Positions 7,401 through 57,600 of a DNA stretch of 64,000 nucleotides are shown here, piece after piece (within the stretch, counting starts at the first letter, position 1; each line of letters opens with the position of its first letter). Location: the NCBI GenBank assembly GCA_905178155.1, contig CAJINV010000005.1, positions 7,370,989-7,434,988 on the forward strand, in the 5' to 3' direction. The notes beneath the pieces were generated by a model. It was not told the DNA's origin. It ran no database searches and saw only the letters and a program-made list of their open reading frames with translations. Origin of the DNA: Amoebophrya sp. A120. Lineage: Eukaryota > Protista > Dinoflagellata. Both the position numbers and the translations under genes were made by a program.

Positions 7401-10400
7401 GCTGCGCATCGTGCTGCAGGAGGGAAAAATCGACGTGCGCGTGCAGTACATTGTGGAGCAACTACTCAAGACGAGAAAGGACCGGTTCGACCAGTTTCCG
7501 CCCATTATCAAGGAGCTGGACCTGATCGAGGACCTGGACCGAGTGCGACACGACGGATTTCAGATCGATGACGTGACCTTGCGTGCCCAGGAAATGCTCA
7601 ACATCTTTCAGAAGAAAGAACCGGCAGAGTACTGCTATTGTCTTTATTTTTATCCCGTTCTTTAGTTGTTTATTCCAATCGTCCGGCTTGGTCTACTTCG
7701 ACGAAGCAATCATATCTTCCCCTCCTTAGTGATATTCCAGACTGAAGAGTTTGCGATTTTGATTCACACGTTGATTGTAGAGCCACGGGGGAAAGATAAA
7801 TAAATCAAAAAGTTGTAGAGAAGAGACAAACTGTACAACTACGGAAAAATCAAAATCTGATTTACAGCTTCGAAGAAGAGGAGAAGAACTGGAAGGACAT
7901 TAGCAAAGAGATTCTCGGAGGTGACAGCGACAGCTCGTCGGGATCGGAGTCGAGCTCCGAAGACTCCGAGGCCGAGAAATCGGAGGAGCAGGTATCGAAT
8001 GTAAAAATGTCTGGGTCTGGAAGAATGTGAACTTGTCATGCAGGTTTTCCATGACCCTTGAGGTGTGGACTGCGGGACCTAGCATGACAGAGGCTGTGAG
8101 GTCTCTTTCGTGCCTATTCTGCATGAGAAACTGCCTTTAAACTTGTTCAAAAGTGGACCTCTTTTGGTAATCATGCAACACAGATTTTTGCATGATTCGG
8201 ATTTACCATGACAAGTTGCAATCTTCCAGACCCAGACATTTTTGCAATCCATAGCAGGTGACGGCAGACCAGCACCAGGAGAACCTGATGAACCAGAACA
8301 ACATCAAGGACTTGACCGAGCAGGATTTGTATGAACTGCAAAAGCATCGTACTAGTATGAATTGCATTACAAATTTCCTCAGCATGAGAAATAAAATTTG
8401 TAATGCGGATTTAACTTGACAAAGAAATTTGGAATGCATAAACGCAATTACTACGAGTACGATACTTTTGCACAGCATAATTTGGTGAACCTGCGCCGTA
8501 CCATCTACCTGACCATCCAGAACGCGCTTGGGTTCGAGGAGTGCGTGCACAAGATCATGCGGCTGAAAAACGTGGACGGATTGGAATACAACATTGCCCA
8601 GATGGTGCTGGACGCCGCGGCCATGGAAAAAACGTTTTCAGAGTTCCACGCAAAAGCGGCGGCGCGGCTGTGTGCCTTGCGGGAAGAATATAAGGCGGCG
8701 TACGAAAAACTTTTCGAGGAACAATTTGAGACGGTATAGTTAGTTTTACCTTGTGCAAAAGTATCGTACTCGTAACTCTTGCTTTTATTATGCGTTACAA
8801 ATATTTTTCTTAAAGGCAAATCCGCACTGCAAATTTAATTTGTAATGCTAAATGCAATTTGAAATATCCACCTAACCACAAACTTTATATCAGATCCACA
8901 ACCTGGAGACGCCAAAAGTCCGGTCGATTGCCAAATTCTTCGCCCTCCTCACCTACCACAACGCCATCTCCTGGGGGATCCTTGCGTACATTGTTTTGAC
9001 CCCCGAAGCGACCAATTCTACCATCCGAATTTTCGTCAAGTACTTCCTGCTGGATCTGTCGGAGAATGTTGGCGTGCGGGAACTGTACAAGAAACTCCAC
9101 TCCGGGGAGATGTCGTTGATCGTTGCGGGGATCTTTCCCCGCGATTCCATGAACAACATGCGGTTTTCCATCAACTACTTCACCGCAATTGGGCTTGGCG
9201 TTTTGGTAGAACCGTTGCGGGAGCACTTAACCAGGGTGCAGCAAGACGAGTACTCTGAGTAAAAACATCTCCACCCCAGAGTTGTCATGCAGATTTGCCA
9301 TTGGAGGAACATCTGTAATGCGCACCCCCTTGAGAGGCATTTCCAATTTGTAATGCTGTAAACAGGATAAGCGGATGGATTTGTGATGCGGTTGTCCTTG
9401 CTAACATGCACTACACTACGGACTGCAACTTGTCATGCGTGGCTGCCTAAACTTCTGGACTTGTGTTGCTAAGTTCCCAACTTGACTCTGGAGTGGGGAC
9501 GTTTTCACATATGATAACGAGCAGGAGAAAGCCATGAAGCAGTTCGAGATCGACATGCACCAGTTAGACAGCGACGGAAACGAGTCGAGTTCGTCGAGTA
9601 GTTCAAGCTCCTCTTCTATGAAGTGCAAAAATGTCTGGGTCTGGAAACTTGTGATGCTAAAATGTGCATGATGAAAACATTTCCGAACGCAGTCCGGCAT
9701 GACAACTTCCCAAAACGCTTTCTTATAGGCAATCCGCATGAGAAACTGCGTTTTTGCATGACAAAAGAGGGCGCGACTTTTGTTGATTATGCAATACAGA
9801 TTTTCTAGGTATGGAAAGCTAGCATCACAAGTTCCAACCTTCCAGACCCAGACACTTTTACAATCCATATCTTCCTCCAGCAGCAGCTCCTCCTCCGGGT
9901 CAGACTCCGACAGCAGCAGTAGCAGTATCAAAAGAAAAAATACCCCCACGACCCCGGGTGCTTCAAAAATTTGTGATGCAAAGTTTCCAAATGAAAACTT
10001 TTTGTATTGCATGGAAGGACTATGAATCTATCTGATGCAGAATTATCTAGGCGAGTAAGGCGTCTTTTCCATGACAGACCCGGCTGCTGCTGGGCTCTTG
10101 CGCAACACAAATTTTAGCTGTTTCGCATTGAAAATTTGTGATGCTGATATATGCAAGACAGGGAATGTTTCTAGTGGAAAGGTTTGCAAGACAAACTTGC
10201 CAAATTCCGAGGTGGGGGCATAATTTTTCATTGCGATAAGCAGCTCCTCTAGTTCATCCTCCAGTAGCAGCTCGAGTTCCGACTCCGGAGCTGCTAAGAA
10301 AAAGAAGAAACAAGCCGAAGCTGTGGCAAAGAAGGGGAAAAACAACAAGAAAGACGGTGGAAAAAAGATGAAAAAGCCTAAAACTAGCAAGGGAAGCGAC

Positions 10401-34085: not shown

Positions 34086-37000
34086 ATGATTCCATCCACA
34101 CCCTTATTTGCCGCGGGGCGGCCACAGTCGCTGGCGGTATCAGCAGCCCTGCTCCTTTCTGCATTTCTTGCGAGCAGGCCGGTTCTCGGAGCTAGCAGTA
34201 GTAGAACAGAAGGTGGTGGTGGTGGTGTCAATATGCTCCCGCCGCAGCCACAGTTCCCCACGACCACGACGCCGGCGACGAGATTCTACAAGCCGCACAC
34301 CTTTGAGAAGCGAGAGACGGGTTTTCGCGCTGGGAGTTTTGCTAGCAGGGGCCCTTCGACGCAGTTCACAACTCTGACCGGAGCGACTGGTGCACCGAAC
34401 AAGCGTAAGAAGTACTACTCACACATGTATGCCGCCGTGGATAATTTTGCTACGTTCTCTAGTACGCCCGGACTTGCCTTGAACGGTGCTAGCATCCACT
34501 TTACGCTGCGACTGAAGGAGAAAGACAGCTGGCGGCAGTCAAAGAAGGCGAAGGCTTCTTCTATGAGTGACTGCAGAAATTATGAAGCCGGAGGAAGTGG
34601 AAGTACTGGTTCTGCTGGCCCTGGCGCGCCTTCGTGGTCTTCTTCTCTCATCGAAGATGAAGCTCAGGCCCGCCTCGGTCAAAAATCTCGCCCGATCAGG
34701 CGACAACGCGGGGAGTTAGAGGCAATGTCTGATCTGTTGGAGGCCGCGAGGGTGAAAAAGCCGCGACTTTTTAGCGTCGCGGAGCGGGTACAGAAGATTG
34801 AGGAAGGCAGGACTGCAGCACCAGCAGCAGCAGCTTCAACCCACAAGCGGAAAGCCTCTCCAACTTCTCTTGAACAAGCCTCATCGAGTGCTGGCACTAG
34901 TAGCTTGCGGCAAAAAATACAAGACGTGTCCGAAGAAGCAGGGACGAGCGCGGCCACAACATCGTCCTCTCCTCGCTTGACGCCTGACGCAAAGCGCCGG
35001 AAACTGTTTGACTCTGAAGCGCCGGCGTGGTCCACTAGTAGCGGCACCGGGAATAAAGAGGAAGACAAGAGGACGGTCACAAATTCAATCCTTAGGTCCG
35101 CACCGGACTTACGGACCACCCGGCCGGGTGGTCCTTAGGTCCGGTGCCCCAAAAGTTCCGTTACGTAACTTCACAAGCTGCAGCAGCTGAGTCGGCAGAA
35201 CCCTTACACGAGATTCTGCAGGTTATCCATTTTTTGATACTGTAAAAATATCTAGTTTTAAGATTAAGAATTAATTAATTCGTCGCCGGAGTGTGTGTGT
35301 CGAAGCCGGCGTCTCCATGTGGTGTCGGGGCGGATTCGGAGAGGCGCGGCGCCGATGTGGATTCTCCGCGACAGGCGACGGCGGTGGGACGGAAGACGCG
35401 CGACACAGATAGCTGGAGAGGTTGACTTTCGGGCCACACAGGAAGACGGGCTGGACATTTTCGGGCCACACAGGAGGATAGTGGTCCCCGACTTTATCCA
35501 ATACACACACGTAGCAGCAGATAATTTATGTCAACACAGGCAGTCCTGGAATTAATTAATTAACTTAGAAACTAAGTTTCTAAGTTAATTAATTAATTCC
35601 CAGAGCATGTATATGTCAAAAGCATCCCTGGCTTCTTTTTATTTTTTTTGTATCCTTTTTGTTTTTTCTTTACATTTTTGCTTTTTTTTGCTTTTTTGTT
35701 TTGTTTTTTCTTTTTGGATTCTTTTTTTTTTTTTAGAAGCCAGGGATGCTTTTGACATATACATGCTCTGGGAATTAATTAATTAACTTAGAAACTTAGT
35801 TTCTAAGTTAATTAATTAATTCCAGGACTGCCTGTGTTGACATAAATTATCTGCTGCTACGTGTGTGTATTGGATAAAGTCGGGGACCACTATCCTCCTG
35901 TGTGGCCCGAAAATGTCCAGCCCGTCTTCCTGTGTGGCCCGAAAGTCAACCTCTCCAGCTATCTGTGTCGCGCGTCTTCCGTCCCACCGCCGTCGCCTGT
36001 CGCGGAGAATCCACATCGGCGCCGCGCCTCTCCGAATCCGCCCCGACACCACATGGAGACGCCGGCTTCGACACACACACTCCGGCGACGAATTAATTAA
36101 TTCTTAATCTTAAAACTAGATATTTTTACAGCCCCCATTTTTTGCATGGAGGGGCGGCTCTATGCCATAGGCTGTTCTGATGTAGCGCAAAAAGTTTCTT
36201 TATGTGCACTAGGAAGGACTTCCTATTTGATTTCTGAAGCTATTTCGAAAGCTTCGCTTTTGATTTTGCATTGCAGTGAATTCGCCTTCCGCTAAAAACG
36301 TCACCCGTTGGCCGACGTCGTTCGCGAAGGCACGACACCGACGTCGTTCGCGCAGGCACAGCCACAATCGTATCGGGAACGGCGCTGACGCTGCGCCGGC
36401 TGATTTTCTTGCGGCGCCGTTCCCGATACGATTGTGGCTGTGCCTGCGCGAGCGACGTCGGTGTGTCTGCACGTCGGCGTGCCTGCGCGAACGACGTCGG
36501 CCAACTGGTGACGTTCCGCTAATACAGAAACTCAAACCGCAGCAAATGCATACACTGCAACGCAAAAACAAAAGTGGCGAAGCTCGTTAAATAGCTTCAT
36601 AAATCAAATTGGCATAGGCTCGCCCCTTCATGCAGAAAATGAATAACATGCAGAATCTCGCGTAAGATTTCTGCCGTCAGGGTGGGACTCAGCTGCTGCA
36701 GATTGTGAGTGAAGTTGCGTAAAGTAACTTTTGGGGCACCGGACCTAAGTACCACCCGGCCGGGTGGTCCGTAAGTCCGGTGCGGACCTAAGGATTGAAT
36801 TTGTGACCGTCCTCCAATCCGATGAAGAGGAGAAAAACAAGCCAACACCAAGCACTCACACTCCAGATACCGCAACGCATTCGGACGACCTCTCATCATA
36901 GTACCGGACAGCCTGCATTCATGATCTCGTCGGGGTCATCTTCCACTTCTCCTGCCAGCTTTCTTCTGTGCGAAGGAGAACAAGAAGACGATACTTCTCG

Positions 37001-39019
37001 AGACCGGGATTTCTATTTGTTCGACTACCGCGTTGACATCGGCGAGAAAATCAAGAAGCCAACCATTGTTATGAAATGCAAAAGCATCGTACTAGTAGAA
37101 ATCGCATTGCAAATCAGCATTAGCTGAAATGGAATTTGTAATGTGGTTTTACCTTCATAGAAAGCCTTGTAATGCATGACTGCGATTAGTGCGAGTGCCG
37201 ATACTTTTGCAATGCATAATTGTGTACGATTGGCGAAACACCGTCGCGGAAAAATTTTTCCAGACGGCGCTCCTCGAAGATGTCGAACGGAGAAAGGAGC
37301 AGATTAAAACCTGGCTGAGGAAGCGGCCGAACATAATGGAGGTCAGCTTCGACAAAACTCCGGGAAGAAATCTACTTTCAAACGGGTTGGCCGTTTTCCA
37401 GGAAAAGCCACAGACGGTTGAAGTTCTTGCTGAAGGCCAGGAAGCTTGTAAGGCGAGCGGTTCTCTCTCGGGTGTTGAAACAAAGACTCTTGTGCAGCAG
37501 GAAACCGTCTCGGTTTCATTCGATGTTCCTGCTGACAAAAAAGAAGGTTCTTCATCATCCGGTCGCGCTGCAACTCCTGCTGCCAAGAATGGTATTGACG
37601 ATAATTACCTCTCCAAAAAAGTGTTTCGTTTGGTGCTGGAATACCCAGCGAATTTTGACCACCACCGTTACGAGGTAGAGTACACCGTGACAGCTGGTGG
37701 GACCATCATGAACCTTCACGGCGATCAGCTCGGTACTTCAGCACCTTCCGCTGTGCTGGCTACTCCCGAGGCCATGGGCGCAACAAGTGCAGACGTTACA
37801 CCTCGTCCTTCATTCGGTGCTAAAACCAGCACGGCCGACGTTTATTTCATGCCCACGTCATCTCGTTGGTCCTTTATCCTTTTGACCTCCGCTGCTCGGA
37901 ATAAAATGGGAGTTAGCGAGACAGGAGACGATCCTTCAAGCCCCTCTTCCCTCCGCGCCAGAATCGTCGGGCCGCAACGCCGCAAAGATAGGTACCTGCC
38001 GACCGCGCTATTTGACGAGGAAACGGCTTGGTCGGTCGTGAACACAAAGAGAGCGGCTTCTAGTACTCCTGCCCATGGACGACCTCCACGGGTAGCAGCT
38101 GCGCCAGGACGAGCTATGGTGGTGTCAGGATTGAAATCGTCAAAGTTGAAATAATTTGCCATGCATAAAATGGATGCCAGTTGAAGCCCAGTTTCCAATT
38201 GGCGCATGACAAATTTGGGTAGAACCCAGATCCAGGTTGTCAGGCTGTTCGGGTAAAGACGACGCCTTTTGTCATGCTACTTTAGCAGCTCTTGTTCTAC
38301 CCCTCAACAGGCTTGCAATCTGCCTCCCTTGCGTCCTCTGCAATAGAGACGGTTTCTGCGTTGCACTTTATGCATGACAAACTCTTTCAACTTTGTCGAT
38401 TTCAATCCTGACGCTTCCATACGAGCGACTTCTTGGTTACAGGACGTCGGGGACGAACAAGAAACCATGCCGATTTTGGAATATGGCGCTCTCAACTGTT
38501 ACATTCTCAGCTGTTTCGTGAATTTGTCATGCAAAAACAGCGAATAGGGAAAGGGGAAAGCTTGCAAGTCTCGCATCACAAATTTGGCACGGATTCAGAT
38601 GCTGTCTAGCCCTTCGATAATTTGTCATGCGAAGCAGCTTGATCGGCTTGCGGCTCATGGTCATTTTGCATGACAAATCATGTAACAGCTGAGAATGTAA
38701 CGCTTGAAAACGCCATATGGAAAGCCAGCTTTTTCTGTTTGACTTTCGAGCAGGTAGTACAAGAACTCCGACGGAGATGAAAAATAAAATGCCGCTCGTA
38801 GCCCGGGTGCTTACCAGTGCGGGGCTGATCAACGGGGCCATTGCCGCGTCGGAGATTATGCAAGAACAGGGAAGGAAAGCCGAAGAGCGCGGGAGAAACC
38901 TTTTTAAATTTTTAGCACCGGGAGTCGGCCTGTCGGGGTTGTTCGTAGCAGACGAAATGGAGAACCAGATGGCAAAAGCGAAAGCGGGTCAACCTGTTCT
39001 TGAGGACCCAGCTGCATAA
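34086..39019 (+). CDS. Hypothetical protein with signal-peptide-like N-terminus, ~825 aa; interrupted by a 1.75-kb composite transposon and 3 introners
   Basis: N-terminus MIPSTPLFAAGRPQSLAVSAALLLSAFLASRPVLG. Frame restored (EED-NPMKRRKT) on removing 35069-36814 plus CAA. Spliced length 2478 nt. Confidence 0.65.
35240..36131. repeat. Foldback element: 397-bp inverted arms with 98-bp T-rich spacer
   Basis: Arms 35240-35636 and 35735-36131 (mirror ORFs in the track); CCATTTTTTG repeated 3 nt outside each arm. Confidence 0.9.
36297..36515. mobile_element. GC-rich hairpin MITE
   Basis: AACGTCACC...GGTGACGTT; near-palindromic throughout; flanks CCGCTAAA/CCGCTAAT. Confidence 0.65.
37070..37218. 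mobile_element. Introner family B
   Basis: TSD ATTGT. Confidence 0.92.
38115..38421. mobile_element. Introner family C
   Basis: TSD CGAGC. Confidence 0.92.
38482..38717. mobile_element. Introner family F
   Basis: TSD TGGAA. Confidence 0.92.
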
Positions 39020-40087
39020 GACGAGCGGATGTTTACCGTTTTTCTTGCCCGGCGTGAAACCAGATGAAACTTTCCGGTAGCAAGCTAAAAACGACAACCA
39101 CAAGTACAACTGAGGCGCTTCAACGAGCAGCATGCACGCACTTGTACTATGATCAATCAAGAAGATCACTTTTATTCGCATGTATATGTACACCCACCAC
39201 GTTCTACTTCTTTGTCTTTCAGCTATTCATTGTTCTGTTCCCTAGCTAGTCTTTCACCGCATTCCAGATCAATGTATGATTTGTACAATTCATAATACCC
39301 GCAATATTTTTATAGACTCGAATAGAAGAAGGAAAACAAAAATACGCGTCACGACCGTCTGGTGCAGCCGTGTCGTGAATGGAAAATTAAAAAGCGTTCA
39401 ATTGGATGAAGCCGCACCATGATTTTGATTTCTCAAGCATAAAACTTCTACTCCATCCGTAATATGCGGCGATTCGTAAACGAAAACGCACTTTTGAAAC
39501 GAGAATACCAAGAAACTGAAACTGCAGGCTCGCCCTGCAACTTCGAGCGCAGCTGCAAATGCTAGGAAAAAACTCTCAGATCCTGGCTTTCTTCATTCTC
39601 TACTACCGGTGGTTCAGTTTTTTTCGTTCCCGTTTTTATCAGACCGTGATTCTGTATGTGCTGAAACTGGCTCGGAACTGTTGAACACAAGTTTTGCAGC
39701 TTTTCCCCTTCGTTTTCTATCTCTATTTTCTCTTCCTGTGAAGGAACTTGGAATTACTTTGGAGATGACCTATTGATGATCCGCGTCATCTGAATCGTCT
39801 TTCTATGCTCGTTTGAATTGGTCGTGGTAGCTCTGTGTACTTGAACCTGTTAGTTATGGTTTCTTGTCGTCTTGATGCTAGCGTAGTAGATACAGCCAAA
39901 GCCGATTGCGTCGTCACGGACGAAGATGTTTCAGAAGTTCCTGAACAATTGGATGGCACCAGAGATGAAACAGTCATGTGTGGTCTGAAACGACTCATAT
40001 CTTTTGCTCTCTCTCCTGCAGCGAGAAGTTTGTAGCCCTAGTCACAGTAGATTCATCATCGCCAGCTAAACCTAAAGTAAGAAAAAA

Positions 40088-43000
40088 ATGCAGGACCCCG
40101 CTGCACAGCACCCCCAGCAGCAGTCCACCAGCACCTCTCTCAAGGAGCTCTGTCGGGACTTTTTCGTCGAAGAGCTCCTCAGGAAAACCATTTCCCTCTC
40201 CGGAGGAGGTGATGGCCGTTCTCAACATATGCACTGCAAATATGTCTTTTGGGTCCTTAAGGATGTACGGTTTGTCATGCTTGTGTGGCATGAGTGAAGA
40301 GTTTGTGATGCGTGTCCAAGAAGAGACTTTCTTTCTATATGCAAAGACTCAGTCTATCATGCGGAGAGCGCAACTACACGAGACCGCGCAAATATTTCTC
40401 ACCGTGCTTGGCTATGCATTACAGATCATTTCACTATTCACAATTCAGCATTGCAAGTTTCCAGACACAGACATATTTGCAATGCATAAAGCAGGGTAAT
40501 TCGCCACAGGGACGAGAGCAGTTCGAGGGCGGAGTAGATTCTATCAAAAGGAAATATCCCCCCTCCCCATATCGGAACGACGTTTCTGATGCTGGATTTG
40601 CGTACACAAATCAGGTCTGTCTTGCTGGAGAGGACTGCAGGCATATGCCAAGCCTGAGTCGAGAGGTTTGGACGTAGGCGACTAGCATGACAGATGTCGG
40701 CTCTGTAAGCCCAACAGCATCACAAGCCGCCTGCATAATGCTGCCGACTCTCTGGCTTTGTCTTCTTGCAAGACAAACGCGATTTGTGACCTCAAATCAC
40801 CAACACAAATGTTCGGAGTCATACCTTTTCAATATGGGGAGGGGGGATTTTGCCTCACAATAGATTCGCCGCAGTCACCAACGGTAGATGTTGCCAAAAA
40901 TCTAAATGCGGCGGACACTCAAAACAAATTCCTGGTGATCTGCGACCAGTGCGGTTTGCGCGTTTTGAACAGCATCTGCAGGTTGTCCGACCTCTACGAA
41001 ACCGGGGTAACCGCGGTAGAAGCGCTGGAGTCGAAGGATAGGCAACCTATTCCGTCGTTGGATGGGGTGTATTTTATCGACCCGGAGGATGCCGATAGCG
41101 TCGGGATTTTGCTGAAGCAGGTACTATGTAGTGCGGGTAAGTTTTGACGACCGGCGCTGTCTTGAAGATAGTGATCCTGGTCATCTACGATTCATCTTTG
41201 TGAGACAGTGTAACAATCAAAGCCAAACAAGAAAAATCTCCCAAATACATAGCTGGTCGACTACTAATTGTCCCTGCTTCTTCTCAGGAGGGAGGTGGAC
41301 TCTGCGTCTGCTACAGTAACAGTGGGATTCTATGCCAATATGATGTAGCTGCCATAATTTGCAAACTTCAGGACTTTCCCATCCCGACCGCCGCTGCGCC
41401 CGACCCAGTCGCCAATCTCGCCGGTAACACGAATCCAATGTCGCTCTCCGCCGCAACAGCAGCATTGAAATCGAAACTGCCGAAGACAAGTTCGCAACAG
41501 AAGGAGCAGATCCAGCATGACAACGTGCATCTTTTCTTCACCCGGAAATGCCCCGATGAAGTCCTCCGAGAACTTTCCCGGCACCCGCTGCTCGCCCCGA
41601 GGATAAGAAACGTCGTGGAGATCCCTTTGGGTCAGTTCCAACTCTTCCACAAAAACGTGTTTCACTTGGATTTATCCGGCGGGCTGCGAAATCCGAAACT
41701 GTTTTCCGCGAATTTTCTGCAAAACAGCAACACAAATGCAGCAAATAATCGGGACTCGTTTGGGAATCTGAAAAACTGGAGCAAGGACACTCGGGGGAGG
41801 ATTCTGTCAGACAAAGGCTCGAGCTCTGCCAGCTCGCCGGTCGGAGAGAACTACGATGGAGTAGACAACAACGGCACACAGCCTCATGAGGATGAAAATG
41901 TCCGGAACGGTACTATCAAATGCAAATATGTCTGGGTCTGGAACAGTGGAACTCGTGATGCGTGTCTTGCATTCCTGGAAAATCTGGGTTGCATGAGCAG
42001 CAAAAGAGGAACTTCCTTCGTGGTCATGCAGAAATGCAATTTGTGATGCGTGCTAGGCATCAGCAGGCGCGTCAAAAACTTGGCATGCTCGGCTGCCATT
42101 GCAAGCAATTCAATCATGCTCAATTCAGCATCATAGGTTTCCAGACCCAGACATATCTGCAATGCATAGGTACCGCTTTGACGCAGCGATCACTTTCTCT
42201 CCTGCCCAACGTCAACCACTTCTACCCGAGGTTTGCCAGGCTGCACGACACGGTCGCAGGCCTGTATCAGCTGTGCAAAGTGCTGAGCTACAACGGTGGT
42301 ACGACTGGGGGTGCCGCCGGTGGTATAATACCAGGGCAACAAAATCGCGCAGGTTCCTGCTCCTTCGACCTGGATATCCGGTTCCAAAAGGATTCCATCG
42401 GTATACGCATTGCAAATATTTCTGGGTCTGGAAGAATGCAAACTTGTGATGCGCATTTCACAACACATAAAAATCTCTCATGCATAGGCAGCAAAAGCTG
42501 CCCACTTTCTGTCACCAAAGCCGGGCATTTGTGATGCAGATTCGGCATTGCGGAAGCTTCTCGAAACCTGTGATGCTAGAGCTTCCATGCCAGACCTTTT
42601 GTGCAATGCAAAAGCAGCACGACTCTTCCAGACCCAGACACTTTTGCCTTTGATAGGGTAACATGTGCTACAACTTGGCACGAAAGCTGATTCAGGAACA
42701 CAACTATCCTGTGCAAAAGCATCGCACTCGTACTAATCACAGTCATGCAAGACAAGTTTCTTTTTCAAGCTAAATCAGCATGACAAATTCCATTCCTCAT
42801 GCTGAGCTCATTTGTATTGCAATACTACGAGTGCGATAATTTTGCAGTTCATAACAACCGAAATTTCTCCAGCGGGGGAGCAGGTTCTAGTAGTAGAGGC
42901 CGGGCGTCGTCTGACCCGAGGGGCCAGGCGTCTTCGATGGGTGGTGGTATGAACAGGCGGGGTAGAGAGACAGGTGGCGGCGCCGGAGCAGGTTTGGTAT

Positions 43001-46000
43001 CTTCTGCTGGAAAGAAAGTGGAGATTCTAATTTTAGAACGTGCCTTTATGGGTGTGTCAGGATTGTAATCGATAAAGTTGGAATAATCTGTGATGCATAA
43101 AATGCAAGGCACGAAGTGACTGTCTTGCAGGGATTGCAAGTGAGGCCGATTGTGAGCCTGTTTCGGGTTTTGGATAGAGCTGCTAAAGTAGCATGACAAA
43201 GGATGCCTTCTTTATTCGCTAAACAGCATGACAAATTGGATTATGATGGCATCAACATTTGTCATGCGTCGCTTGAAAATTGGGATAGCAACTGGTATCG
43301 GTCTTATGCATCACAAATTTGTCAACCTTGTCAGTTTCAATCCTGACAGTTCCATAGTTTTTGATCTCCCGGCCTGCTTCGTCCACGAGTACACGTATGA
43401 AGTATGAAGTGCAAATGTGTGTACGTCTGGGTCAGGAATCTTGTGATGCTGAAACTCGCATTGCAGAGTAGCCGCATGTACGGCATAAGAGCGTAAGAGG
43501 TTGTTTTGCGAGGCCTAGGGGTAGTGCCGGATCATTCGCAAAACGCATGACAAACTGACACTGGGTTTCACAGCATGACAAGAGAACTAGCCAATCGCAT
43601 TTATGCATCACAAATCCTTGTTGCCCTTGACATCTTGCATCACAAATTCAGACACAGACGTATTTGCGATGCATACGAAGCCCTGGTCTACGATGTTTTG
43701 GACGACGCCATGGAGCAGTCGGCGAACAACCTGAGCTACATATCGCAAGAAAAAATCTCTCTCTGTAAACTTGTGATGCAGAAAGTGCATCACTAGGCTG
43801 TTTGTCTTGGTACACATGCGAGACACTTGATGTGCAGCTGTGTTTTGTATTTGTTCCCGTAGGAACCACTAAAATGGGCCGTCTTTTTTCTTGTCATGTG
43901 CTGTAGCGAAGAACTTGTCTTGCAAAACCTGCAAAGTCCTATAGGGTGAAGCACTTTTTTCGTGCGATACCACGCGAAGTATGGGCTGAATATTGAAACA
44001 GGAGTGATAAACACCACCACAGCCGCATCCTCCGCTACTTCAGGGACATCAAATCATGCAAGTACGGAACAGCACGTTTTAGCGGACGATTTATGGGAAC
44101 AGTTAAAAGCGCAGCACTTCGTGGACGCGCAGAGCTACGTTTTGACCCAAGCCGGGAAGCTATCGGAGCAGTTTGGTGGGCTCGCACAGTTGGAAAAGCA
44201 AGGTAGAGTTAGTTGGTTTCATGTCTAACGTACAACTCTGCACAATGACTAGTAACAGCAGGTTGCGATCTTGGTGATAATTGCAGCTGGTCCTCCTGCG
44301 GTGGCGCCTTCGTTGCATATGCATTTATTCGCAAGATATAAAAAGTACGGCACTGTGTACTAAGTAATGGTTGATCAACATCAAAAAGTTATCAGGTGGG
44401 CAACAGCTTTCCACGGAGGCCCTTGCGCAGATGGTAAGAGAGCGACCACAGTACCAGGAATTGCTGCGCAAATACCACTTTCACGTGGACCTATTCGAAA
44501 AAGCCGCTTACCAGCTGAACGAGGATAAACTGATGGGCACCTCCAGCAACCAGCAAATGAATAACAACGCCTCGGTATCCTGACAAAAAACGTCCCCACA
44601 CCAGAGTCAAGATGGCCAATCTGCTAGACAAATCAACCAGCTGCGGTTGCTGCGCATGACAAGTTTGGCCTCATAGTGTAATCCTATTGAGCTAGCTCCA
44701 GCAGCATGACAGATCTAGCCTACCATGCTGGTGCGAGCGTCGCAAATTGCGAAACACGACTAGGAAACGCCTCTCATGGGGCTCGACATGAGAAATATTT
44801 TTTGCCATGCAGATTGCCATACCATTTTTACCCAGAATACTCGGCGATCCCGATCGAGCTCTGCGTGTTCGAACAAGATTTAGCGACGGGGGTGGACCTA
44901 TCAAGTGCAAAAATGTCTGGGTCTGGAAGATTGCAAGGTTTGTCATGCACGTTTTGCATGACCCAAGATGTCTGTGATGTATGCCACAGCATCACAGATT
45001 TTTTGCGGGCATCTTGATGCCTATCCCGCATGAGAAATGCCCTCTCCGCGGAGCTAAAACTGCACGCCTCTTGCTGCTCATGCAATACAGATTTTTTTAG
45101 ATTCCAAAAATTGCATAAGAGCGGGGTAACAAATGACCCGTTAACTCGCACCCGCGAGTTAGCCGGCCGCCCGGCCGGCCGGACGGTTAACTCGCGGTTA
45201 GCAGTGTAGACATATCGAAAGGTGGCGCGAATCTAACCCGAAGCTTTCGCCAATCCTCAATCCAGCGCGCTGATTGAGAATTTTTTTATCGTGCTTATTT
45301 ATAAACGAAATCGATTGCAAAACACGGCGGAAAAACCGTAACAGGCTTCATTTTTTGCAATTCGAAACGAGGAAAGTTTTTCATGCGTCAGCAGCGTAAA
45401 GCGTCGCTATCATTGCAGTTCATCTAGCGAACGCTGAGAGAGGGCGAGCTAAACTCCGCCTGCGATCTGGCGCTTGTTTAAATCGCCATGTTATAGCGGT
45501 GACGCAATAAAATTCTCAATCAGCATGCTCGAATGAGGATTGGCGAGCACTTCGGGTTAGATTTGTGCCACCTTTCGACTTGTCTACACTTCTAACCGCG
45601 AGTTAACCGTCCGGCCGGCCGGGCGGACGGCTAACTCGCGGGTGCGAGTTAACGGGTCATTTGTTACCCCGCTCTAACAAGTTGCATTCTTCCAGACCCA
45701 GACAATTTTGCAATCCATAGGACCGCGAGGGCCGGGAGATGAAAGTGCTGCGGTTTAACAGTTTGTTACAACAGATTCTGAACAACTCCGCTTCGAGCAG
45801 CTACAGCTCGGACCCGAACTTTATCCCGATGGAAACGAAAGTCCGGCTTTTGTTGTTGTATTTCTCAGTATGAAAGTGCACAACTCCCCCTCCCCCTCAC
45901 TTGTATTGCATGAACAGCAATACAAGCGTCAGCAAGAACACAGGTTTTGCATGACAAATTTATTTGGACAGGCGTGTAGTGCAGCTATTTGGGCTGCCAG

Positions 46001-47606
46001 AACTTGTCATGTAAACAGTGCCATCAAGAGCTTGCCCAGGCGTAAATTAGGTATTTTGCATGAGAAATGAGAACGAGGGGGAGTTGTGCACTCTCATACT
46101 CAGTGATCGGAAACGTCCCGGATTCTAGTAGAAGACAACTGTTGGACGCTGCGCGGTTGACAAACACCGAACAACAAATGGTGTTGAGTTTGATGGAGAT
46201 GGCCAATTCGAGCAACGTGAACAACTCTGCTGCAATGGCACAGCAACAGAACGCGAAGCAGAGCCAAAATGCGCCGTTTCACCGGTCTAGCGCGAAGGAG
46301 GTGAAGAAATACAAGCAGATCGCAAAATCTATCACAGGAAAAAGTGTTAACCTTAACGAAATTTGTGATGCAGTCATGTATCAGAAAAGGTGGTCAAATT
46401 TGTATTGCATAGCATGCACTGTAGGAAAAAATTGTCATGCATAACCGCAATCTCCGAATAAAACCGTTAACGTTAACACTTTTCCTTCCAATAAAATCTG
46501 CCCGGTTTGACATGACGAGATTCGAGCCGAGAGTGAAGGATTTTGCGGAAACCTTGATCAACAATCAGCTGGACAATTTACTGGATGCCAACGGTGGGGA
46601 AATCTTCGCTTCCATGTCATCTACAGGAAACAATACTTCGAAGAGCAGATCTACTGCGACGGGAGTAGATGAAAATACCGGGACATCCAACCACCTGAAA
46701 ACGGTCGAAACCGCATTGGACCAGGTAGACGTTACCTCCTGGTCGTTTGGCGGAGGTTCTGGGGGGTTGGGGGCGACTCCGGGGAGGGCGAGCCAGATGA
46801 ATAAACCGCCAAGCAACAGGAACAATCAAGACCAAGTCGCAAGAGCCTCCGCGGCAACCACTTCCCCCGAAAGGGGGAGGAAAAGGTTTGGGTCTGCCGG
46901 CGGAATCTTCAGAGGTGGAGGCACGGCGGGAAGTTATAACGACGCAACAGGAACAAGTACCGCTTCTGCGTCGAACCAACGGCGGGATATTATTGTCTTC
47001 ATTATCGGCGGGATTACGCTGTCGGAGATCCGGGAACTGGAGAAGATACAAGAGTCCAATGCGAACGTAAATTTGCTCATCTATGGCGTTCTCAAACGCT
47101 ACATTCTCAACTGTTACATGAATTTGTAATGCAAGACTGGCACAGGTAAGACAGAGAATCTTGCGCGTCTTGCATTACAGGTTTGGTGCGGACTACAGTG
47201 CTATTTAGCCCTCCGAGAATTTGTCATGCGAAGCAGCTTGATCGTCTGGCGGGTCATGGTAATTTTGCATGAAAAATCAGGTAACAGTTGAGAATGTAAC
47301 GTTTGAGAACCCCATATCATCGGCGGCTCGCAGGTTCTGACGCCGAAGAAGATGTTGCAGTTCTTGAAAGAAGAGCATGAGATGCTTGGTGGAGGAGCTG
47401 GCGGCCATGACAACGACCAGGATGGAGGTTTTTATAATCCACCGGGAAGAAGTGGTCCTGGGATGGGCGGTGGAGTCAGCAACAACTATGGCAGAAACAA
47501 CAACGGAAAGAACGGCAGGAATAGCGATCGGAATGTGTATGGTGCCAGCATGTACGATCGTGGCGGGGGTGGAATGACGCGGGGAGGAGGCGGGAATTAT
47601 GTGTAA
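40088..47606 (+). CDS. Sec1/Munc18 (SM) family vesicle-fusion protein, ~1081 aa, 15 introns
   Basis: Motifs KFLVICDQCGLRVLNSICRLSDLYETGVTAVE...RQPIPSLDGVYFIDP, ILILERAFDL...HEYTYEALVYDVL, DDLWEQLK, PQYQELLRKYHFH, EQDLATGVD, IIVFIIGGITLSEIR...IGGSQVLTP. Spliced length 3246 nt. Confidence 0.93.
40228..40488. mobile_element. Introner family A (diverged)
   Basis: TSD CAACA/AAGCA. Confidence 0.85.
40542..40862. mobile_element. Introner family G (TIR TATCAAAAGGAAA.ATCCCCC.TCCCCATAT)
   Basis: TSD GATTC; close relative of 53464-53787. Confidence 0.92.
41121..41371 (+). other. Canonical GT-AG intron (Sec1 gene)
   Basis: GTACTA...CTTCAG giving LLKQ-DFP; an alternative in-frame AG exists at 41287. 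Confidence 0.7.
41914..42168. mobile_element. Introner family A
   Basis: TSD GGTAC (allows GT-AG). Confidence 0.92.
42404..42655. mobile_element. Introner family A
   Basis: TSD CGGTA/GGGTA; left end TAC. Confidence 0.88.
42705..42853. mobile_element. Introner family B
   Basis: TSD ACAAC. Confidence 0.92.
43047..43356. mobile_element. Introner family C
   Basis: TSD GCCTT/GTTTT; splits the Sec1 LER-AFDL motif. Confidence 0.9.
43403..43675. mobile_element. Introner, family A-like
   Basis: TSD TGAAG/CGAAG; splits HEYTYE-AL. Confidence 0.9.
43741..43969. mobile_element. Introner family H
   Basis: TSD CTACA/CCACG. Confidence 0.82.
44203..44395 (+). other. Canonical GT-AG intron (Sec1 gene)
   Basis: GTAGAG...TATCAG; joins KQ-GGQQLS. 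Confidence 0.8.
44576..44839. mobile_element. Introner family D
   Basis: TSD CTCGG. Confidence 0.9.
44899..45719. mobile_element. Introner family A carrying a nested MITE
   Basis: TSD GGACC; 262 bp without the insert. Confidence 0.9.
45119..45674. mobile_element. PIF/Harbinger-like MITE
   Basis: ~165-bp TIR starting GAGCGGGGTAACAAATGACCCG; TSD TAA. Confidence 0.88.
45869..46098. mobile_element. Introner family E
   Basis: TSD CTCAG. Confidence 0.92.
46330..46493. mobile_element. Introner family H
   Basis: TSD AAATC. Confidence 0.9.
47082..47316. mobile_element. Introner family F
   Basis: TSD TCATC. Confidence 0.92.
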
Positions 47607-51600: not shown

Positions 51601-54600
51601 TAACAGTTGAGAATGTAACGTTTGAGAACGCCATATTAAACCACAGTTCCCCCCTGACCGCCAAAGCCAAGTCCAAGACCGGCGCAGCCAAAGCGGCCTT
51701 CGCCTCCAATATCACAGGAAAAAAGTGTTACAGTTGTTACACACTCGTTGCAATTTCAGCATCACAAAGTTGCTCTGCATAGCAACAAAAACTTGTGATG
51801 CGCAGACTGTAAAGGAAAACACTAAAACGCACCATGAAGTAAGGCTGGAGAGCATTTCCTGCATGACAGAGGTTGTCTGTCTTGCTGGTCTTGCATCAGA
51901 GGGATAGCTGTAACACTTTTTTCCTGCGATATCCAAGCCGAAGATGTCAATGCTGTCCCGGATGCGCACCACGGTCGCGGGGAAGCTGATGGGCCCGGCC
52001 GCGATGAAAGAAAACGACTTAACCTACATATTGTCCTTCCCGATCTCCCGAATAAAATCCGGCGAGAAAAAGCGGTACGCCCCGTTGCACTTCGAGCGGT
52101 GTATGCGGCAGGGGTACGCGATCGACATTCCGAAACTTTCCGCCGAGCGCATCACCCGAGCGGATAACAAGACCATCCTTTCCTTCGGATCCCCACGGGA
52201 GAAATCGAAGCGGGCGAACCGGCTCGAGGGGTTTGAGAAGTACAAAGAGGGAGAATTGTACTTCATCGCGGAGATGGGGGCGAAGTATTACGCGAAACCT
52301 TTGACCAATTTCGAGAAAACGAAGCACTTCTGGAACTTCGACATAATTGCGGAAACGGCGAAAACCAACGTGAAACAGAGGTTTGAACCGGGGGTGATCG
52401 AGGAATTGTCGAAGAAGATGGCGTTGCTTGCGAAGAAGAACAAATCCGTTCCATTGGCGGAAAAAAGGAAACCGAAGACCGGATTGCGCACGATGGATTA
52501 CCAATGTTCCGTGCCGTTAGCGGAGCGAAGAGAATCGGAGTTGACGGAATCGGAATACAGTGAGATATGAATTGCAAAAGTATCCTACTAGTAGTCATTG
52601 CAATACAAATTTCCTCCGCATGATAGCTGGAATCATTTATCATGCTGTTTTACCTTAGGGGCAAGATTTGTCATGCCTAATTGCAATTCGTACGAGTGCG
52701 ATACTTTTGCACAGGATATGAGACCGACTCGGACGATTCCATTTTGTCGCCCGAAGAGATCTATCAAATGCAAAAATGTCTGGGTCTGGAAGATTCTTAC
52801 ATTTGTCATGCATGGCTGACATGACTCGAGACTCTGTGATGCAGGGGCACGAAAAGGCTCGCCTATCTGTCATGTAAAAATGTTGTTTCTCATGCGGAAT
52901 ACGCAACACATAGCAGCTCAAAAAGTTGTCATGCTTGGCTGCGTATTGCAGTCCGGCTATCATCCGCTTTTAGCATTATAAGTTTCCAGACCCAGACTAC
53001 ATTTTTGCATTTGATAAGATCCGGCAAAGGCAGTTGTACAAAGTTCCGAAGAAAAAGAAAGAGGAAGTTGAGGAACCGTTGCGGAAAAAACCGAAAATCC
53101 CGACGTTTTACATCACATTCGGGATTCGGGAGCGGTTCACTCTGGATAAGGAAATCGACGCTTCGAAACGGATATGCAATGCAAAAGTGTAAAGTGCTTG
53201 CTCCTCGTATATTTTTGAATTGCATGCGCGCATGACAAACCCGCTCCTGATGCTGAATCAGCGTGACAAATTCCATCTGTCATGCTGAGCTGATTTGTAA
53301 TGCAGTTACCACTACAACGAGGACCACTAGAAGCACGATAATACTTTTGCACAGCATAGCGCAAACCGGGCGTGAAAGAGATGATGCTGCACTGGCTCGA
53401 AAACCGGTTGGCGAACAAAATCACCGACATCGACGACGAAGCTTCCGGTTACCCCGCATTTGCTATCAAAAGGAAAAATCCCCCCTCCCCATATCGGCAT
53501 GAAGTTTCTGATGCTGGATTTGCGTACACAAATCAGGTCTGTCTTGCTGGAGAGGACTGCAGGCATATGCCAACACTGAGGCGGGTGGTTTTGACGTAGG
53601 CGACTAGCATGTCAAATGTCTATGGTGTAAGCCCGATAGCATCACAAACCGCCTGCATAATGCGGCGGACTCTCTGGCTTTGCCTTCGTGCAAGACAGAG
53701 GGGGTTTGTCGTGGCGACCAATCTGCATCACAAATTTTCGGGCGGATGCGCTTTCAATATGGGGAGGGGGGATTTTTTGTCACAATATTTGCCGGTCCGG
53801 AAGGGTATGCGGAGTGGGAGTTGATGCGGCAGATCCGGAAGAGGTGTAGCGACATGTTATGCATTGCAAAGCAATCGTATTCGTACCACTAGTATAAATT
53901 GCATTACAAATTGACTTAGCCTTAGAAATTGACTTTGTAATCATGCGGATTTGCCTTAAGAGAAAGATTTGTAATGCGGAAACGCCATTGGTACGAGTAC
54001 GATGATTTTACGATGCATACATGTACTTTCACAACAAATCCGACGTGGAATTATTGGAGAAGATCCACAACTCCGCGAAGTCCTTGGAAATCTCCTGGAT
54101 GTTCCTCTGTATGAGGGAGTACGAGACCCGGGTGTTTGGCTTCCGCACCCCGCGGTTTGAAATCGAAAGACGAATCGCCAAAGCGAAGATGGAAGAGGAG
54201 GAACGAGAACGGAAGAAAGCAGAAGCGGCGAAGAAAGCGGAAGAAGAGCGGAAAATGGCGATCATCCGGGGGGACATTCCGCCAACACCAGTGGCTGTTT
54301 CCAAAACAAAATCATCTTCCGCTGCGGTAGTGCCAATTACCGGAGTTTCGACCGATTCGCTAGGAGTTGGTGCTGTTTCTGCAGCAGTTGCAATCGCGTT
54401 CGGGACACCAGCAGCTTCATCGAGGCAAAATTCGTCGCGTGCGAGCTCCCGGAGGTACACGAGCACGGTGGGTGTGCAGGACATCTTAGGAGATGGCGGC
54501 ACAGAATCTTCGTCCGTAGCCAGCTCCCGGGGGGACAACAGGATCGAGCTTAAAAAACTGGCAGAAGTTGATGGCTTGATTCAAACCTTGACCCAGAAGC

Positions 54601-57600
54601 TCTGCTACGACACAGCGAATGGGGATGTGCCCGGGGAAGAAAAACTGGACGAAGCAACGGCGCGGCTAGGAGGGGGAATAGATAACGCAAAAAACAAAAC
54701 TTCTGAAGACGGTAAGGAACAGCAACAAACCACCAACGAGCTGCAGTTTTCTAACCTTTTGGAAGAAAACTTGATTAAGTTAGACATACAAAACGAACAT
54801 AATAGTGGAGAACGACTACCAAAAGAGGAAACAAAAACGGGTCCGCCACCACCGGTACCAGCAGCAGCACCGGGTGACGTTGTACTTGTAGCAGAGAAGA
54901 ATAAAGACACGACCACCTCTACCCCAGCCGTTGTTCCAGAAGTCCCTACCCTCAACATTCCGGACCCAAATACGCCAGCACCAGCAACCCAACAGCAACC
55001 ACAACCTGGCGCACCAGCAACCACACTCACCGTATTTGCAACCGCTCCCGTCCCCAAGCCCAAGCCTCCCTCCCTCGGCACGGGGTTTGGGAACTTCGCG
55101 GGTAATCTTCTCGCCGGGGCGAAACAGCAAACTTTAGGAGAAATTGTCGTGCAGGATGAGCAGATGGACCATAAATTGTGCAATTTAGAGTTTCGCGAAT
55201 ACCCGGACAAGTACACGTTTTTTACGACCCACTACATCTCCTTGACTTTCCAAAACGAGCCGATGTTTCCGCAAATGTTCCTCGCGTTTTTCTTGCACGA
55301 ATACGGAAATTTGAAAATCGAGATTGAGAAGAACTGGCTCCCCAACTTTCGCGTGATGCCGGACGCAAAGAAGTATTTGGAGAAGCTCGAGGAAGAGAAA
55401 ATCCAGTTGGAATTGAAAAAATCCGAGCACAGCCGGGATTTTCACGCACTCAGTACTGAGGAGCTGTTGAAGATGAAAAAAGAAGGGCTGGGAATCGCGG
55501 AAATGCGGCAAAAACGGGTGGTGGAGGTGGATTTCATGCGGAAGCAAAAGTTGGACAAGATGGCGAAGCAGTTTGTCGCGGTCGAAAAGCGGAGGGAGCT
55601 ACAACAGCAGAGAAGCCGATCTACCTCGAAGGACCGAGATTCCTCGATCGGCGCAAGCAGTCTGGCGTCGCCCAAAGCCGGGAGTAAACAACCGCCCGGG
55701 GTGCACTTCCAAGACCAGAAGGGGAGACAGGGTGGTGCTGCTTCACCGAAGGTTTTATCCCGACCGGGCTCTGCGAGCAGTGTTTCAAGACCGGGATCGG
55801 CGGCTTCAGACGCTGGGGTCGGAAAGAGCTCCAGGGGCAGTCTTGGAGGTGCGGGAAATCAACAAGTGAAGCACGCGGCGACGATGCCTGCGTCGCTAGG
55901 CGGAGCAGGCACAACTTCTAAATCCGCAGGCATAAGCGGAAAGGCAGCGCAGATTGGCGGTACGCCGATCGGGTTGCAAGAGAAGCCGAAAGAGGAATCC
56001 GGTTCGGGAAGCGCAGCTTCTTCCGCTGCGGATGATGAGGAAAATGAATTGGGGAAAATCGAAGAAGAAAACGGGACTGCTGGGGATGCGGAAAAGGAAG
56101 GAGAAGCCGCAGGAGGTCCATCTGGAATAAAAGCCGCTGCTGGGACTTCTCCTGGCAAAGCTGGGACAAAGGCTGCTGCGAAGGCAAAGGGAAAGGCGAA
56201 AGCCGGACCTGCTGCTGGACCAAGTGCGAAAGCAACTGCAGCAACCGGTGCAGCTAGTCCTGCGAAAGCCGCGGCCACAAGTAGCGGAAAAGCCAGCGCT
56301 GGCGCCCCGAAGCAGAAGGCCAAGGCGAAACAGCAGGCGGCAGAAAGCAAATCTGGTCCTGCGAACAAACAGGCGGCTGCACTGGAAAAAGAGGAAGGAG
56401 GTGCAGCTGCTGCACCGGGCAGCGGCTCCCCGGCAGGCTCACGGAAATCCACCCCCAACAAGTCAGGCTCTGCTGCCAGTTCAAAATCCCAATCCAGGTC
56501 TGGGTCGGCCACCAGTCAGACTGGTAATATTGGCGGTTTGGACACGAAACCGAGTGGAGAACAGGATGACAGACTTGCGATGGAGATTTCCGGGCAATTT
56601 GGGTCTGTCGAGGAAGTTTCAATCAAACTCGACGAATTGAAAGACAAATCGTTAGACGATGACGGAAATGCAGATAAATCCTCCAACGCATCTAACCTCT
56701 CCGGCCTTTCTTCCGGTTCGTCTGCGAAAGCGAAGCCAAAAATTGCACCGAGGCGAACCGCGACGCGCGTCCAGCGTGGCGGCACAACGGTGTTTATCCC
56801 GAGTTCAAGCTCTGAGTCGTCCTCCGGCTCGGATTCTGATTCCGATAGCGACAAGAGTAGCAAATCGAGCAAGGGGTTTGTGCGTTCCTCGGATAGCGAC
56901 CAGAGTGAGGACGATAGTAAGAACGCGAAAAAGGATAAGAAGAAAAAGGACAAAGAAGGGACTTCATCTTCCGCGGAGGAAAATAAACCAGCACCAGAGG
57001 AGCTCGAATACAGTGATACTGACGGAGAAACCGACCTGTACGCGACCACCAGCTTCCGACAGAAGAAGATCATTCGAAGGAGATTGCTCTACATGTGCAA
57101 GTTAAAGCACCGCGAGTTTTTCGAGAAATTGGCGATTATGCTGAACTTTTCCAGCACGAAATGGTGCTTGCGGGAGTTGTATGCATTGCAAAAACATCGT
57201 ACTAGTAGTACTCGCATCACAGATTTGCTCGGCATGACAAATGGAATTTCTCATGCTGATTTACCTTGAAAAAGAGATTTGTCATGCATAGATGCGATTA
57301 TTACGAGTGCGATACTTTTGCAATGCATAAGTTGTTCAAGATCTACTGCGGGGTGTCCATTCTGGTCCGGAACCGCGGGCGGGACAACGTGATCCAGGAC
57401 AGTTTTCTCGACGAGCGGACCAGCTGGTGGAAGCTTCTGTTGAGGGAAATCATCGAAGTCCTCTGGTACAGCTTGCCCCCGCAGGACGCGGCAGATTTCG
57501 TCGACAACGAAAATTACCTCCTGTGCTCCCCCTTCTTCACGATTAAGCTAGCGAAGAAGTGCTTCGAACTAATTCCGACCTTTACCTGGGCCGACAACGA

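Follow-up and report, generated by a model that had tools for sequence, protein, structure and literature searches.

Transposons inserted in maize exons (Ds/dSpm) are spliced imperfectly, with some host sequence lost or gained, via GT-AG sites in or near the element. In Amoebophrya sp. A120, the source strain of the DNA described here, more than 60 % of introns are non-canonical, and the introners of this genome carry inverted repeat (IR) motifs beginning with TAT, with direct repeats of 3–5 nt at the cut (PMC7789003). The IRs lie within 1–5 nt of the cut (PMC7789003, Fig. S23 legend). Spliceosome parts are mostly retained in A120, whereas U1 snRNA was undetected, and the removal mechanism for non-canonical introns is given as open (PMC7789003). 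The gene models of the strain were made from transcript alignments (PMC7789003). Introns of this sort are restricted to part of the genus Amoebophrya (PMC12005148). Diverse TIR transposons make A120 introns, and some introners remove host amino acids (PMC12130899). Dataset S2 of that study lists 58 A120 introner families, 0 of the 58 with PIF-Harbinger as the final class (PMC12130899). Family fam38 has a 5-bp TSD and TA/TA ends, and fam65, classed as a Mutator family and of 4 copies, has an 8–9-bp TSD and GG/CC ends and is annotated as introns with non-canonical 3′ sites (PMC12130899). Tourist-like MITEs (PIF/Harbinger, mPing) have a 3-bp TSD and excise precisely (PMC4561436).

The window, meaning the whole 64-kb stretch of DNA analysed, is rich in resident introners. 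TAT...ATA elements that have both a 5-bp repeat and a terminal IR of at least 11/20 number 56 there; shuffled versions (n=10) contained 0–3. Of 51 introner candidates from a stricter scan of the window, a GT/GC/GA-AG reading is possible for 6; thus, AG is unnecessary in the A120 genome. A GT...AG stretch at 8735-8893 resembles a canonical intron and shares an IR with the introner at 8330-8479, and may therefore be a decayed introner. Additionally, a stop-free frame of 1087 codons with strong A skew extends over 54006-57269; an introner scan inside it found none.

The gene at 34086-39019 is interrupted by an element of 1746 nt (35069-36814) that starts with GAGGAC and ends with GTCCTC. CAA is duplicated on either side as its 3-bp TSD (35066-35068 and 36815-36817). 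The TIR arms (35069-35174 and 36709-36814) are 106 nt long and 96 % complementary, or about 180 nt long at 86 % if extended. Without its inserts, this outer element is a near-perfect hairpin of 377 nt. The first-pass annotation, made on the letters of the window, had reported a GAG...CTC element with long TIRs and a CAA duplication within the gene, all of which was confirmed. It had also described a three-layer composite; the composite is indeed nested three deep, but consists of four pieces, a TAT...ATA insert having been missed. The parts are as follows.

35069..35174, no strand assigned: left TIR of the outer element, containing a 48-nt palindrome (35100-35147)
36709..36814, no strand assigned: right TIR of the outer element, joined to the downstream exon in a DNA-type contig (36785-37096)
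35237..36134, no strand assigned: foldback insert, 898 nt, with the 10-bp repeat CCATTTTTTG at 35227-35236 and 36135-36144
36161..36616, no strand assigned: TAT...ATA introner-like insert that occupies the tip of the outer hairpin, with the 5-bp repeat GGCTC at 36156-36160 and 36617-36621
36296..36513, no strand assigned: hairpin MITE inside the insert 36161-36616, with the 9-bp repeat TTCCGCTAA at 36287-36295 and 36514-36522

The inner arms of the foldback insert (35240-35636 and 35735-36131) are 397 nt long and 100 % complementary, with a T-rich spacer between them. The foldback previously placed at 35240-36131 corresponds to these perfect arms, but the insertion unit is 35237-36134, and its 10-bp repeat has the length of a Mutator-like TSD. 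The terminal 3 bases are unpaired (ATA versus CCC), though the 397 nt inside are perfect, and each arm holds a 53-nt AT-rich palindrome. The introner-like insert has a weak terminal IR (12/20). The IR arms of the MITE lie at 36297-36334 and 36478-36515, with a 2-nt overlap with the right 9-bp repeat; a hairpin MITE had been given as 36297-36515, and it is present, but as a unit of 36296-36513 inside the unreported introner-like piece. The longest stop-free stretch of the element in all six frames is 125 codons, so it is taken to encode no transposase. A search of Rfam over 34900-37000 gave 0 matches.

The host gene encodes an orphan protein of 816 aa (P0001, CAD7951986.1 / GSA120T00013392001.1). 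If the element is retained, the host frame stops after residue 350. Excision with one CAA (1749 nt) gives ...EEDNPMKRRKT..., as the first-pass annotation had read, in an open frame of 825 aa to the stop at 39019. The transcript form is a different one. Its joint, 35050|36827, lacks 1776 nt, namely the element and 30 nt of flank, in frame; both copies of CAA and 24 further bases are removed with the element, and nine codons (NKEEDNPMK) are missing from the resulting 816-aa product. The segment can be cut in three equivalent ways (GA..AA, AA..AG and AT..GA), none of which combines a GT, GC or GA donor with an AG acceptor as U2-type introns do. The gene is laid out as follows.

34086..35050, + strand: exon 1, coding part; the boundary may slide to 35052 (GA common to both sides)
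35051..36826, + strand: segment absent from the transcript, the element with 18 nt upstream and 12 nt downstream
35051..35068, + strand: lost upstream host flank, including the left CAA (35066-35068)
36815..36826, + strand: lost downstream host flank, the right CAA and 9 nt of host sequence
36827..37064, + strand: exon 2, in record 9 of run X3 with 0 other letters
37070..37218, no strand assigned: ordinary TAT...ATA introner with the repeat ATTGT; exactly 5 nt are removed along with it
37219..38108, + strand: exon 3, in an X3 contig
38115..38421, no strand assigned: ordinary introner, repeat CGAGC
38421..38476, + strand: putative exon 4, 56 nt, placed from the 56 letters of record 9 that separate two mapped pieces; the total of 1768 agrees
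38482..38717, no strand assigned: ordinary introner, repeat TGGAA
38718..39019, + strand: exon 5, ending at the stop; its transcript contig continues to 39301

Three other joints disagree with the transcript letters and were rejected: removal of 1749 nt by precise excision, of 1777 nt as a GA-AG intron, and of 1769 nt through a jump at the repeat AAGAGGA (7 nt). The public gene model CAD7951986.1 already annotates the element as an intron; it is identical letter for letter to the 816-aa model and differs from the 825-aa precise model. This agreement may not be independent of the transcript contigs, since the public models were built from transcript alignments. The A120 model itself was the sole match in a search for homologues of the N-terminal 322 aa, and a full-length HMMER search found the same A120 protein alone and no orthologue showing the nine residues to be ancestral. 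Pfam returned nothing above the cut-off for the host protein (best E 0.14).

Evidence for the joint comes from a comparison of four sequencing runs (X1, X3, X9 and X10) of 11 listed, over 36132-44800; X9 and X10, with 4 and 6 reads over this region, are uninformative. Run X3 carries no RNA label on its record and is classed as RNA from its behaviour, as its contigs are without introners and depth is absent between genes. Record 9 of X3 (1768 nt, depth 116.6, 0 other letters) spans 36827-37064, 37219-38108 and 38718-39301. Ahead of 36827, an additional X3 contig carries a loose end at least 255 letters long, whose 30 printed letters are those of 35021-35050; the transcript form thus joins 35050 to 36827. 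The left junction is known through this loose end alone, as the run comparison began at 36132, and the joint is a single junction taken from contigs and not from reads. Contigs drop rare forms, such that a precise form at low level, or an uncommon deletion allele, could go unseen. Depth of X3 is 0 over 36132-36709 (two bins, the interior of the element) and over 39311-40177 (three bins). In the DNA-type run X1, which like X3 is from its own sample and study, a single unbroken contig (36785-37096, depth 43.3) runs out of the right TIR and on into exon 2. Depth of X1 is 42–47 at six other unique pieces and 31.2 at a seventh. As this contig is unbroken and at single-copy depth, X1 does not show the branching that an empty or deleted allele should cause at this site. 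Another X3 contig carries the outer TIR end at 36815 followed by a different flank starting with CTA, which suggests that the outer-element family has another copy, at least partly present in X3.

The open, spliced transcript of X3 and its zero depth over 36132-36709 speak against a recent knockout, one of two outcomes that the first-pass annotation had offered. The other was an excision system that accepts any TIR and TSD structure and removes it precisely, and this also fails in its precision, given that the joint takes 27 nt beyond the precise cut. The proposal of RNA evidence across 35068/36815 was borne out insofar as the element is skipped, but the joint lies at 35050|36827 and not at the element ends. 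Likewise, an unrelated transposon would be neutralized, as had been suggested, in the sense that the transcript contigs skip it; this would hold if removal is at the RNA level.

Ordinary introners nearby serve as controls. All three in the host gene (3/3) fit removal with one repeat, and the X3 joint 41908|42169 likewise fits the element plus one repeat. The neighbouring Sec1-family gene (40088-47603; 1081 aa, PF00995) has 15 introns in the window, of which 13 are TAT...ATA introns, while the two without TAT...ATA (41121-41371 and 44205-44397) allow GT-AG. By its annotated model, 12 of the 13 TAT...ATA introns remove the element and exactly 5 nt. The exception, intron 42402-42655 (257 nt, TAT...ATA, IR 8/20), is without a 5-bp repeat and removes 3 nt. 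Such a constant addition of 5 nt is informative, because selection for frame alone would equally permit 2 or 8. Four of the 12 (40228-40488, 43047-43356, 43403-43675 and 43741-43969) have flanks mismatched at 1–2 positions; a perfect repeat is thus unnecessary. For introner 43741-43969 the protein permits just 1–3 nt to be removed upstream. Introner 44899-45719 contains the following feature.

45119..45674, no strand assigned: second GAG...CTC element, 556 nt, TAA duplication, 169-nt TIRs (92 %)

The public model removes this 826-nt intron with exactly 5 nt, so length or an inner hairpin alone does not spoil precision. The inner palindrome of the second element lies at the same distance from its end as in the outer element 35069-36814. 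BLAST between the two GAG...CTC elements of the window found no similarity.

Like the A120 introners, the outer element is hairpin-ended, exonic, without GT-AG and absent from transcripts (PMC7789003 for the introners). Introner IRs start with TAT and lie 1–5 nt from the cut, whereas the outer element has GAG...CTC ends and TIRs of more than 100 nt, and is cut 16–18 and 12–14 nt outside its IR (PMC7789003 for the introners). The 1776-nt segment also exceeds the 40–1000 nt intron analysis window of that study (PMC7789003). A CAA repeat is present, yet it does not overlap the cuts as introner repeats do, and TAT...ATA within the composite is confined to the nested piece 36161-36616. Since these two defining features of introners fail, the outer element is not filed as one, though it works like one. 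As with Ds/dSpm in maize, an exonic transposon is absent from RNA together with some host sequence; the maize insertions use ordinary GT-AG, and none fits here. Family fam65 is, similarly to the outer element, a TIR element of another superfamily within the A120 genome, and provides a precedent for foreign TIR elements as A120 introns (PMC12130899). No statement on imprecise, flank-eating junctions in A120 was found in the text of PMC12130899. A literature search that covered few subscription papers retrieved none on imprecise removal of a foreign transposon in Amoebophrya, which is weak evidence.

That the superfamily of the outer element differs from that of the introners, as previously proposed, is supported by termini and TSD length. 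PIF/Harbinger TSDs are typically TAA/TTA; the duplications or flanks in question are CAA at the outer element, CTA at the other copy (one side) and TAA at the second GAG...CTC family. Sola3, with GAG ends and a TTAA target, was rejected for the outer element because no 4-bp duplication fits. Like Tourist-like MITEs, the outer element is non-autonomous and has TIRs, a 3-bp TSD and a core below 500 bp (377 nt), but its core is wholly one palindrome, unlike theirs (PMC4561436). Classification relies either on 11 terminal nt shared with an element already classified or on an autonomous partner with ORF1 and transposase (PMC4455052). The outer element is plausibly a Harbinger-like candidate.

The reading we favour, with moderate confidence, is that the non-canonical intron machinery of A120 removes the element from RNA at cryptic in-frame positions. 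The main alternative, though an unlikely one, is an event in DNA: a transposase would have excised the element in the lineage that supplied the RNA, after which end joining, using GA as a 2-nt microhomology, deleted the 30-nt flank in frame and left the assembled insertion allele silent or a knockout. It would suit the origin of the DNA and RNA runs in different samples, and short microhomology deletions are typical of end joining (PMC4561436). The local elements are young, given that the foldback arms are complementary at 397/397 positions, which also suits recent excision. However, a 2-nt microhomology is frequent by chance (338/1560 possible junctions), and the X1 contig 36785-37096 is unbranched at single-copy depth. 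Given the precise DNA excision described for Harbinger-type elements (PMC4561436), a 30-nt footprint in DNA is also less expected, and a revertant produced by precise excision would likewise be in frame. The break of X3 record 9 exactly at 36827 suggests, additionally, a second and perhaps unspliced predecessor in the RNA. Were excision from DNA true, the locus would be a mere transposon footprint.

We consider it improbable that the ordinary spliceosome acts here through cryptic sites, with the hairpin hiding the element, the first AG used as acceptor and a poor AA donor (intron 35052-36827). The AG at 36826-36827 is the first downstream of the right TIR, and most spliceosome parts are present in A120 (PMC7789003), but AATAAAG is unlike GTA, the donor of both canonical introns of the Sec1-family model, the acceptor AAG has no pyrimidine run directly ahead of it, and a GA-AG intron would be 1777 nt long, contradicting the letters; nor is AG required in this genome, as the 6/51 introner candidates readable as GT/GC/GA-AG indicate. 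It is still much harder to credit an artefact, whether a reverse transcriptase jump over a very stable hairpin or a joint made by the assembler. Such reverse transcriptase artefacts are on record (PMC8240250, PMC2923612), and the missing segment has a folding energy of −0.81 kcal/mol per base, compared with values between −0.29 and −0.41 in three ordinary introners. The joint, however, is in frame and ignores both the 3-nt CAA at the stem base and the nearby 7-nt AAGAGGA repeat, and a retained element should have left pieces in X3 where depth is 0 (36132-36709). The faintest prospect of all is that the element inserted into a tiny intron that was already there, or into an old introner relic, such that the 27 nt were never coding. 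TAA...ATG ends at 5-nt spacing and the nesting within an introner seen at 45119-45674 would suit this, but the relic would be just 22 nt long, its would-be repeats GGGAA and AAGAG agree at 2/5 positions, and the 27 nt are open as NKEEDNPMK, completing a KRRK motif that resembles another at residue 303.

If the element is removed from RNA by the non-canonical intron machinery, the paired TIR stem may bring both exon ends together, and the cut would not be guided by the 3-bp duplication. A machinery presumably set for a 5-bp duplication would, in cutting at the stem base, take out 1751 nt and cause a frameshift; it may be the in-frame product, lacking 1776 nt, that accumulates. Speculatively, the cuts could be measured from the TAA at 35054 and the ATG at 36822-36824, each differing by a single letter from TAT or ATA, with a span equal to 1776 minus 5 nt. 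The TA at 35054 is the sole one within 29 nt upstream of the stem. This post hoc match lacks statistical significance: with a 3-nt matrix, 57 of the 370 junctions in frame score equally well (18–78/370 over eight settings). Regarding flank pairing past the TIR stem, no extended or strong stem was found. In a wider version, structure would guide cutting by the A120 system, a fixed ruler of 5 nt starting from TA-like ends would set the position, and any long foreign hairpin would be a substrate; this is put forward tentatively, as a possibility that we think somewhat doubtful. The 5 nt would match the duplication of the resident introners, and foreign hairpins would be cut by sliding to the nearest TA-like letters.

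What is new here is the imprecise in-frame junction; the intron annotation and A120 biology of this kind were already known. The junction argues against precision guided by the duplication. Cut sites are hard to read from ordinary introners, whose junctions are blurred by the repeats. A foreign transposon whose duplication is 3 bp offers a naturally varied substrate, which separates recognition of the hairpin, recognition of the duplication and measuring from TAT/ATA ends. Introners with mismatched flanks, together with RNA reads, could likewise fix the true cut sites in A120. The junction constrains the unexplained removal of tens of thousands of A120 introns without splice signals (PMC7789003). 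If the 5-nt ruler is real, every TIR transposon would be a potential A120 intron that deletes a few codons, and a cause would be supplied for the fast protein change reported in the A120 genome.
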